A stretch of DNA of 64,000 bases from Escherichia coli. Its GTDB lineage: Bacteria; Pseudomonadota; Gammaproteobacteria; Enterobacterales; Enterobacteriaceae. The first letter of the stretch is position 1; every line of letters begins with the position of its first letter. This document shows, one piece after another, positions 18,579 through 19,773 of this stretch. Both the position numbers and the translations under genes were made by a program. The notes below the pieces were generated by a model. The model was not told the origin of the DNA. It saw nothing but the letters and a program-made list of their open reading frames with translations, and did not search any database. Where the stretch lies: NCBI RefSeq assembly GCF_024502345.1, contig NZ_JALDNN010000001.1. One strand, given 5' to 3'.

Positions 18579-19773
18579 GGAAGGTGCGAATAAGCGGGGA
18601 AATTCTTCTCGGCTGACTCAGTCATTTCATTTCTTCATGTTTGAGCCGATTTTTTCTCCCGTAAATGCCTTGAATCAGCCTATTTAGACCGTTTCTTCGC
18701 CATTTAAGGCGTTATCCCCAGTTTTTAGTGAGATCTCTCCCACTGACGTATCATTTGGTCCGCCCGAAACAGGTTGGCCAGCGTGAATAACATCGCCAGT
18801 TGGTTATCGTTTTTCAGCAGCCCCTTGTATCTGGCTTTCACGAAGCCGAACTGCCGCTTGATGATGCGAAACGGGTGCTCCACCCTGGCACGGATGCTGG
18901 CTTTCATGTATTCGATGTTGATGGCCGTTTTGTTATTGCGCGGATGCTGCTTCAAGGTTTTTACCCTGCCGGGACGCTCGGCGATCAGCCAGTCCACATC
19001 CACCTCGGCCAGCTCCTCGCGCTGTGGCGCTCCTTGGTAGCCGGCATCGGCTGAGACAAATTGCTCCTCTCCATGAAGCAGATTACCCAGCTGATTGAGG
19101 TCATGCTCGTTGGCCGCGGTGGTGACTAGGCTGTGGGTCAGGCCACTCTTGGCATCGAAACCAATGTGGGCCTTCATGCCAAAGTGCCACTGATTGCCTT
19201 TCTTGGTCTGATGCATCTCCGGATCGCGTTGCTGCTCTTTGTTCTTGGTAGAGTTGGGTGCCTCAATGATGGTGGCATCCACCAAAGTGCCTTGGGTCAT
19301 CATGACGCCTGCTTCGGCCAGCCAGCGATTGATGGTCTTGAACAATTGACGGGCCAGTTGATGCTGCTCGAGCAGGTGGCGGAAATTCATGATGGTGGTG
19401 CGATCCGGCAGGGCGCTATCCAGGAATAATCGGGCAAACAGGCGCATGGAGGCGATTTCGTACAGGGCATCTTCCATGGCACCGTCGCTCAGGTTGTACC
19501 AATGCTGCATGCAGTGAATACGCAGCATGGTCTCCAGCGGATAGGGCCGTCGGCCATTGCCCGCCTTGGGATAAAACGGCTCGATGACAGCGGTCATATT
19601 CTGCCATGGCAGAATCTGCTCCATGCGGGAGAGGAAAATCTCTTTTCGGGTCTGACGGCGCTTAGTGCTGAATTCACTATCGGCGAAGGTGAGTTGATGG
19701 CTCATGATGTCCCTCTGGGATGCGCTCCGGATGAATATGATGATCTCATATCAGGAACTTGTTCGCACCTTCC
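18579..19773 (-). mobile_element. IS5 (1195 bp)
   Basis: Ends GGAAGGTGCGAA... / ...TTCGCACCTTCC; flanking 4-mers TTAG and CAAG differ (no target-site duplication). Confidence 0.9.
18725..19705 (-). CDS. insH: IS5 transposase InsH
   Basis: 326 aa, [37 protein letters not shown]... Confidence 0.9.

Follow-up and report, generated by a model that had tools for sequence, protein, structure and literature searches.

How do full-length insertion sequences come to lie between flanks that do not match? The question is raised by a 64,000-nucleotide stretch of an Escherichia coli contig (NZ_JALDNN010000001.1, assembly GCF_024502345.1), referred to here as the window, in which two copies of IS5 and single copies of IS1 and IS903 are complete and lack target-site duplications. 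A first-pass annotation of the sequence had drawn attention to these elements and had proposed that IS-mediated deletions or translocations reshuffled chromosomal blocks. We have mapped the ends of the elements, traced the origins of the DNA on either side of each, and sought the partner junctions in relatives of the window's genome among a set of 5,426 complete E. coli genomes. The features of the window are listed in Table 1.

Table 1. Insertion sequences, sequence blocks and island features in the window.
Feature	Coordinates	Strand	Remarks
IS903(B)	11573–12629	+	Full length, 1057 bp, 18-bp repeats; no 9-bp duplication
IS903 ORF	11605–12573
Block A, 'appC-appB-cbdX-appA-etk'	14173–18578	+	Imported E. 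coli-type fragment
etk remnant	17884–18576	-	Etk profile positions 497–726 of 726; cut exactly at IS5 end
IS5#1	18579–19773	-	1195 bp, IS5/ISKpn26 hybrid; flanks TTAG / CAAG
IS5#1 transposase ORF	18725–19705	-	326 aa
213-bp stretch	19774–19986		Between IS5#1 and Block B
Block B, 'gntP remnant, lutC, lutB, lutA, dld, lldP	19987–27226		Lactate-utilisation module
IS1#1	27227–27994	+	Full length, 768 bp; no 9-bp duplication
Block C, TetR, AraC-type HTH, diguanylate cyclase, AI-2E transporter, mmuPM, tauABCD, olsF, hemB	27995–42150		Enterobacter homology
IS5#2	42151–43346	-	ISKpn26-type, 1196 bp; flanks CTAG / TAAG
IS5#2 transposase ORF	42298–43278		326 aa
Block D, AIDA/MisL-like autotransporter gene and flank	43347–47300	+	Right limit approximate
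Chemoreceptor gene, C-terminal fragment	49617–50225	-	Fused to IS1#2
IS1#2	50015–50689	+	Truncated, IS1 positions 94–768
P4-type integrase gene	50782–52044	-	Attachment-site end of island
tRNA-Phe 3' 49 nt	52243–52291	-	After integrase gene; island end

Insertion sequences without target-site duplications

The two IS5 copies, numbered in their order along the window, are each ∼1.2 kb long, with the 16-bp terminal inverted repeats of the IS5 group, GGAAGGTGCGAA(T/C)AAG, and a single gene for a DDE transposase. In IS5#1 the repeats read GGAAGGTGCGAATAAG and CTTGTTCGCACCTTCC. The two copies share 95.9% identity, and in the identical sequence of E. coli G3/10 both reading frames bear the RefSeq label of an ISKpn26-family transposase. 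IS5 duplicates a 4-bp YTAR target (PMC5009759), and neither copy is bordered by such a duplication, the flanks being TTAG and CAAG at IS5#1 and CTAG and TAAG at IS5#2. The two copies are thus not simple insertions, their membership of the IS5 group being unaffected. IS5A of E. coli K-12 also lacks a duplication (TTAT/GGAG).

An IS1 element is recognized by its length of 768 bp, imperfect terminal repeats of ∼23 bp, insA and insB genes with a programmed frameshift, and a target duplication of 8–9 bp. IS1#1 has this length, its ends read GGTGATGCTGCCAACTTACTGAT and AAGTTGGAGTCATTACC, and its frameshifted transposase is annotated in G3/10, so that it is an IS1; its flanking 9-mers, GCCTTTTCC on the left and GACCGGGTT on the right, are not an 8–9-bp duplication. 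IS903 has a length of 1057 bp, 18-bp terminal inverted repeats, a transposase of ∼307 aa and a 9-bp target duplication. The copy in the window carries the repeat GGCTTTGTTGAATAAATC at both ends together with an open reading frame and belongs to IS903, and it lies between the unlike flanks TATCTATGC and ACTGTGTTT. A fifth IS copy, the truncated IS1#2, had been missed by the first-pass annotation; it is joined to what is left of a chemoreceptor gene, a C-terminal fragment.

Two other IS5 insertions served as positive controls. The IS5 between cspH and gfcA in G3/10 has a perfect duplication of CTAA, and an IS5 in strain VREC0864, located 30 bp past the CTAG site at hemB, has a perfect duplication of TTAG. 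Since these control insertions are duplicated under the same definition of the ends, the absence of duplications in the window is genuine and does not stem from the way the ends were mapped. The coordinates given in the first-pass annotation for the four full-length elements, and the mismatch of their flanks, are borne out, and precise end mapping, which it had singled out as capable of revealing matching duplications after all, leaves the flanks unmatched.

Soundness of the assembly

Repeated IS copies of 0.8–1.2 kb are classic points of collapse or mis-joining, and the unmatched flanks could be explained by assembly errors at them. However, 11 independent complete genomes contain IS5#1 with both of its junctions, and 16 contain IS5#2 with both of its own. 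The two junctions of IS1#1 were read directly in G3/10, 1368KP and S43 and are annotated likewise in strain 81, and the TetR block adjoining IS1#1 is found in 18 genomes. Misassembly, which the first-pass annotation had named as a second way in which its reading might fail, is excluded for IS5#1, IS1#1 and IS5#2 only, because 11–18 independent complete genomes share these junctions. The IS903 junction is unique to the window, and it is there that this explanation matters most; for the unmatched flanks as a whole it is extremely unlikely. In strain 81 the IS5 side has been lost through a separate deletion.

A mosaic island at a tRNA-Phe gene

No genome in the collection covers at least 80% of either end of the window. 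The closest complete genome is that of E. coli G3/10, to which positions 12630–45555 are 99.96% identical, and the G3/10 counterpart is part of a ∼90 kb island between pitB/gss and tRNA-Phe-yqgA. As is characteristic of tRNA-associated islands, the window contains accessory DNA with a P4-type integrase gene beside a repeat of a tRNA gene 3' end; this tRNA-Phe fragment was the sole tRNA sequence recovered, a scan of the window for complete tRNA genes having found none. What the window shows is a portion of a mosaic genomic island located at a tRNA-Phe gene; in the closest complete genome this gene lies beside yqgA (pheV). A second island is present in the window beyond the tRNA-Phe fragment. 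The joint between island DNA and 'appC (14172|14173) is without an IS.

Origins of the sequence blocks

Block A is a partial copy of the app-etk region, and its homology to the native region stops at position 18578, the left border of IS5#1. G3/10 retains an intact native hya-appCBA-etk-etp-gfc locus at 3.12 Mb, with which the island 'appC-etk copy shares 98.4% identity, compared with 99.5–99.8% identity to other strains. The island copy, being closer to other strains than to the native locus, was therefore imported from a different E. coli. A second matching place is found in every one of the 18 genomes that carry the TetR block, consistent with the 5' part of etk lying elsewhere, a location that was inspected in G3/10 only. 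In AMSCJX03 the same island-to-'appC joint is present with etk, etp and gfc intact, and the TTAG target is found at the breakpoint.

The 213-bp stretch on the other side of IS5#1 is always joined in E. coli chromosomes to the right end of this IS5, and it is absent from plasmid versions of the lactate module. Block B, the module itself, shares 97% identity with IncF plasmids of Raoultella, Klebsiella and Citrobacter; this homology ends at ∼27226–27227, the left end of IS1#1, and the module is, judging by it, plasmid-type DNA. According to the first-pass annotation, IS5#1 joins a truncated etk to a truncated GntP permease gene. The first half of this description stands, etk being cut exactly at the IS5 end, but the GntP remnant (profile positions 310–446 of 447) starts at ∼19952, ∼180 nt away, and IS5#1 is not the cause of the gntP truncation.

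Block C (∼14 kb) is collinear with Enterobacter DNA at 91–95% identity, and its OlsF is 98% identical to proteins of E. asburiae, E. vonholyi and E. chuandaensis. Its tau-hemB segment shares only ∼81% identity with the native segment of E. coli, and the version in Block C occurs in just 17 E. coli genomes. The Enterobacter homology starts at 27995, the first base past IS1#1, and stops at 42150, at a CTAG upstream of hemB that abuts IS5#2. Eight of the nine Enterobacter loci examined keep a YTAR site at this hemB-upstream position, and in the nine loci the sequence takes a different course from there on. Taken on these identities, Block C is Enterobacter chromosomal DNA. Block D is found in ∼15 E. 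coli genomes only, and neither the DNA nor the protein of its autotransporter could be matched in the Enterobacter loci examined.

These origins bear directly on the proposal of the first-pass annotation, in which IS-mediated deletion or translocation would have moved resident blocks (etk, gntP and tau-hemB) within the genome. The gene names do look as though K-12 loci from 0.3 Mb and 1.04 Mb had been brought together, and IS-mediated rearrangement as such is upheld by the recurrent half-junctions and by the 347 bp missing at IS903, both described below. The reshuffling of resident DNA is nevertheless very unlikely, given that G3/10 retains its native app-etk-gfc locus unbroken, that the island app-etk copy is closer to other strains and tau-hemB closer to Enterobacter than either is to its native counterpart, that Blocks B and C are foreign, and that in G3/10 the region lies between pitB and tRNA-Phe. 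Because the island copies carry K-12-like names, inference from synteny would wrongly suggest that the chromosome had undergone large rearrangements.

The origins of the flanks also dispose of the idea that duplications were formed and then decayed by point mutation or small indels. A 1-bp change beside an IS end does occur, S43 having IS5|CTAAGAG where all other genomes have IS5|CAAGAG, but beyond the 4 or 9 bp in question the two sides of each element are unrelated and of different taxonomic origin. We reject decay, to which we would give next to no weight, because the flank origins differ.

Recurrent half-junctions and internal mosaicism at IS5#1

Each junction of IS5#1 recurs elsewhere with a different partner. 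The left junction, etk'...TTAG|IS5, is also found with a right flank of TTAA followed by an HTH/RelE pair, in ECONIH5 and as a second copy in G3/10. The right junction, IS5|CAAG followed by the 213-bp stretch and the module, is present in ∼86 genomes, and in the five of these that were inspected the left flank is of four further kinds: the end of hsdR (TTAG), an IS1-adjacent site (TTAG), mmuP and a GIY-YIG gene. CAAG is itself not a YTAR site, and the ECONIH5-type copy likewise lacks a duplication (TTAG/TTAA). The mmuP flank of K-12 IS5A meets the opposite end of IS5 in other strains, an arrangement that recombination between IS copies cannot yield.

The composition of IS5#1 follows its flanks. 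Its first 160 nt (in window orientation) are identical to K-12 IS5, with 39 positions differing from IS5#2, and the remainder is ISKpn26-like. When twelve IS5 copies are aligned, they prove strongly mosaic: the last ∼480 nt are common to all copies with the CAAG flank and the left part tracks the left flank. We modelled the parents of IS5#1 with present-day stand-ins, ECONIH5 for the left flank and any CAAG-flank copy for the right. IS5#1 agrees with ECONIH5 at every informative site up to ∼773 and with the CAAG-flank copies at 789, 937, 1137 and 1147, placing the parental switch between positions 773 and 789 (permutation p from 0.008 down to <1e-4, on four right-parent sites only). IS5#1 shows the pattern expected of homologous recombination, in which each flank stays on its own IS end. 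We conclude that IS5#1 is an apparent recombinant between an IS5 in the island-borne etk and an IS5 already present on the lactate module.

The first-pass annotation had suggested whole-genome comparison as a means of finding the partner junctions that carry the matching flanks. Such a comparison recovers both half-junctions of IS5#1 with other partners, as described above; the reciprocal junction, in which the right end of IS5 is followed by TTAG and the rest of etk, is present in none of the 5,426 complete E. coli genomes.

A quite different route to unmatched flanks is the insertion of IS elements, without duplication, into double-strand breaks already present during large rearrangements. 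There are experimental reports of it for IS481, IS5/IS1182 and IS150 (bioRxiv 10.1101/2024.06.02.596822), and some of the junctions are indeed non-target sequences (CAAG here, GGAG/TTAT at K-12 IS5A). However, on the left each of the two IS5 copies is flanked by a canonical YTAR site, and the recurrence of half-junctions and the mosaicism of the IS are a better fit to recombination; we regard insertion into breaks as improbable.

Junctions at IS1#1, IS5#2 and IS903

At IS1#1 the left junction with lldP is constant in all genomes examined, and the right flanks differ and are of at least three kinds. The joint of module, IS1 and Enterobacter DNA also moves as a whole into other contexts, for example in strain 81. 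Among 18 IS1 copies the SNP variation was too low to inform on a mosaic pattern like that of IS5. At IS5#2 a search for the joined flanks found no empty site, all 16 genomes with both flanks carrying the IS, and in no genome was the right junction paired with a different left flank. The uninterrupted reference for this position came from the Enterobacter loci and VREC0864. In VREC0864 the Enterobacter sequence runs on past CTAG, indicating that DNA has been lost at IS5#2, and the right flank of IS5#2, TAAG, opens into unrelated DNA. Since the flanks of IS1#1 and of IS5#2 derive from different replicons or genera, the two flanks of each are not from one insertion. Recombination between IS copies is the simplest explanation for both elements; the alternative is that a resident IS deleted the DNA next to it.

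IS903 stands in place of 347 bp that are kept in G3/10 and include an AlpA-like HTH gene. IS903 is known for adjacent deletions through intramolecular transposition, and the window shares with these that IS903 is kept and 347 bp beside it are missing, without a 9-bp duplication. It differs in that neither the direction nor the timing of the deletion is readable from one comparison genome. The arrangement fits an adjacent deletion. An IS903B copy in strain cS33a was considered as the same insertion and rejected, its context being different.

Intramolecular transposition or adjacent deletion, in which an IS keeps one flank and its other end attacks the same molecule without creating a duplication, is a further alternative. 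It would account for the new-looking flanks of both IS5 copies being canonical targets (TTAG and CTAG), for the loss of DNA at IS5#2 that the VREC0864 sequence indicates, and for the classic picture at IS903, whose flanks are 347 bp apart in G3/10. Against it, the occurrence of etk'|IS5 with two right flanks would require two independent hits on one TTAG, the internal mosaic of IS5#1 tracks the flanks, and the flanks of IS1#1 and IS5#2, being from different genera or replicons, were on separate molecules until joined by another event. We consider this alternative possible, albeit doubtful.

Proposed insertion followed by exchange of partner flanks

The explanation that we favor, and hold to be quite probable, is that the four IS elements lie at the seams of imported blocks, having entered by ordinary insertion and later exchanged a partner flank or, for IS903, lost 347 bp beside it. 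That the block borders coincide to the base with the IS ends supports this explanation. In a first step, ordinary transposition would have placed elements in donor DNA: at TTAG in etk, at CTAG upstream of Enterobacter hemB, and within an outer-membrane efflux gene of Enterobacter that lies upstream of the TetR gene. The partner flank would have been swapped later, and the two flanks of one IS, then stemming from two insertion events, cannot match. For IS5#1 the swap would have been homologous recombination between the IS5-family copy in the island-borne etk and a copy on the plasmid-type lactate module, with the crossover falling in the transposase-proximal third of the element. IS903 may have inserted and then lost the adjacent 347 bp, or have inserted along with that loss. 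Positions, block origins, recurrence of the half-junctions and the SNP mosaic are established; the order of events and a dependence on RecA are what we infer from them.

Relationship to known systems

Recombination between homologous IS copies has been measured in E. coli and is frequent (PMC5009759). The IS1 and IS5 events described in mutation-accumulation lines have in common with the window a full-length IS at the joint, flanks that stay with their own IS ends so that no matching duplication remains, and the YTAR targets of IS5. The window differs in the partners, which come from a plasmid, an Enterobacter chromosome and another E. coli, so that the outcome is a mosaic island and not a deletion or inversion of resident DNA. 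The mechanism is ordinary, with IS elements acting as portable homology, together with an adjacent deletion at IS903, inside a tRNA-Phe island akin to CP4-6. The hybrid IS5/ISKpn26 is a record of one crossover and opens no new mechanistic question. The value of the locus is as a clean and well-resolved example of how IS5 and IS1, as portable homology, stitch plasmid, foreign-chromosome and same-species DNA into one island.

Cargo between IS copies is also the hallmark of composite and pseudo-compound transposons and of IS26-type translocatable units, although the lactate module is unlike a composite transposon in being bracketed by different types of IS. IS5#1 and IS5#2 are direct repeats 23.6 kb apart, with the outer flanks TTAG and TAAG and with their cargo split by IS1. 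A composite transposon bounded by the two IS5 copies is rejected, there being no common outer duplication, and nothing was found to indicate that a transposase had moved the unit. A public circular record of 13,429 bp, pRHBSTW-00386_2, consists of IS5-module-IS1-afuB'-fbpC-mmuM-mmuP only, with no replication gene listed; the circle may have arisen in assembly from a tandem repeat. One could imagine recombination-driven translocatable units in which IS5 and IS1 enclose a cargo such as the lactate module, alone or together with mmuPM-afuC; such units would form circles like this one by crossover between IS copies and re-enter, across genera, at any IS5 or IS1 resident on a plasmid, in an island or in a chromosome. 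We think this unlikely; if it were true, IS5 and IS1 would be a general shuttle that brings Enterobacter hemB and tauABCD into an E. coli island.

Among the closest parallels are also the tRNA-Phe (pheV) islands and CP4-6 of K-12, the latter with the arrangement IS5A-mmuPM-afuCB'-IS1. They share with it a P4-type integrase beside tRNA-Phe or its 3' fragment, CP4-type genes (yafW, ykfB, antirestriction and Gp2/YagK) and cargo flanked by the same IS5 and IS1 copies. Unlike those islands, the window carries as cargo a second, Enterobacter-derived hemB-tauABCD-mmuPM segment, the plasmid lactate module and a partial second appCBA-etk, and these, with the hybrid IS5/ISKpn26, are what is specific here. 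For annotation, the appA, etk, tauABCD, hemB, mmuP and ykgEFG genes in this region are extra island copies, some of them from another genus, and are not the native loci.

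IS5 junctions in other genomes

The DNA that flanks IS5 on its mmuP side (GGAGGCGTTATG) abuts the transposase-proximal end of the element in K-12 (locus L083); in two further records (L008 position 7001 and L080 position 6319) the same nucleotide abuts the distal end. Homologous recombination between IS copies cannot place opposite ends of IS5 at one flank in this way. The K-12 copy itself, IS5A (L083 5094-6288), has no target duplication and is flanked by TTAT and GGAG. At another IS5 junction, strain S43 reads IS5|CTAAGAG (L003 9197-9205), and all other genomes examined read IS5|CAAGAG (window 19774-19780). 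Because CTAA, as in S43, is a canonical IS5 target, a single base beside the IS end may have been lost from the common form.

One of the records with the distal arrangement, pRHBSTW-00386_2 (CP056566.1; L080), is a public circular record of 13,429 bp with no replication gene listed. It contains IS5, the 213-bp stretch, the lactate module, IS1, afuB', fbpC, mmuM and mmuP, and nothing else. It looks either like the circle that a crossover between two IS1 copies would produce in a chromosome of the 2018-05-2CC type, or like a product of assembly across a tandem repeat.

Movement and duplication of the island blocks

A 14-kb block of Enterobacter chromosome in the window supplies this E. coli lineage with olsF and with a second set of hemB, tauABCD and mmuPM. 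The native E. coli genes share ∼81% identity with the block, which just 17-18 of 5,426 complete genomes carry. In strain 81 a unit running lutA'-dld-lldP-IS1-TetR...mmuP' lies inside a type VI secretion cluster (L089 1214-12753), and both of its ends are cut with no IS at either; the IS1 hybrid joint therefore moves within a larger unit. The second, truncated IS1 of the window forms a fusion with a gene fragment that encodes the C-terminal part of a methyl-accepting chemotaxis protein.

No IS is present where island DNA, past a Gp2/YagK-like gene, meets truncated appC (14172|14173), and this joint is common to ECONIH5, 1368KP, AMSCJX03 and G3/10, the closest complete genome, which has it twice. 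In G3/10 there are two island-borne copies of 'appC-appB-appA-etk'-IS5 ∼39 kb apart (L010 13656-21350 and L001 13640-19773), of which the upstream copy is further disrupted by IS30 and frameshifts and retains an alternative right flank (TTAA, HTH/RelE).

Coordinates of additional features in the window
Feature	Position	Remarks
Enterobacter block	27995-42150	
Nested IS region	47586-48936	IS30 within an IS3/IS911-type fragment
IS30, full-length	47650-48871	flanked by 91-nt imperfect inverted repeats
Chemotaxis gene fragment	49617-50225	minus strand
Second IS1	50015-50689	truncated at its position 94
Tandem array	52611-52891	48-bp unit, 5.9 copies, 84% matches; inside 114-aa ORF
End modules, direct orientation	1-4296 and 58479-61662	
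Repeated module	1-720 and 58479-59196	93%
Repeated module	2792-4296 and 60158-61662	97%

Nested elements and repeats

The IS30 insertion resembles the IS911::IS30 arrangement of K-12 CP4-6, and the same IS30 is truncated in G3/10. On one side of the tandem array is the tRNA-Phe fragment and on the other a type I restriction gene, and the ORF that holds the array has no family match. The related modules at the two window ends suggest that islands bearing genes for type I restriction-modification and DUF262 proteins are arranged in tandem or repeated. In the autotransporter passenger region, the window (45483-45555) and G3/10 (L001 45555-45623) differ by ∼141 bp of internal repeat, and the repeat copy number is therefore variable among close relatives.
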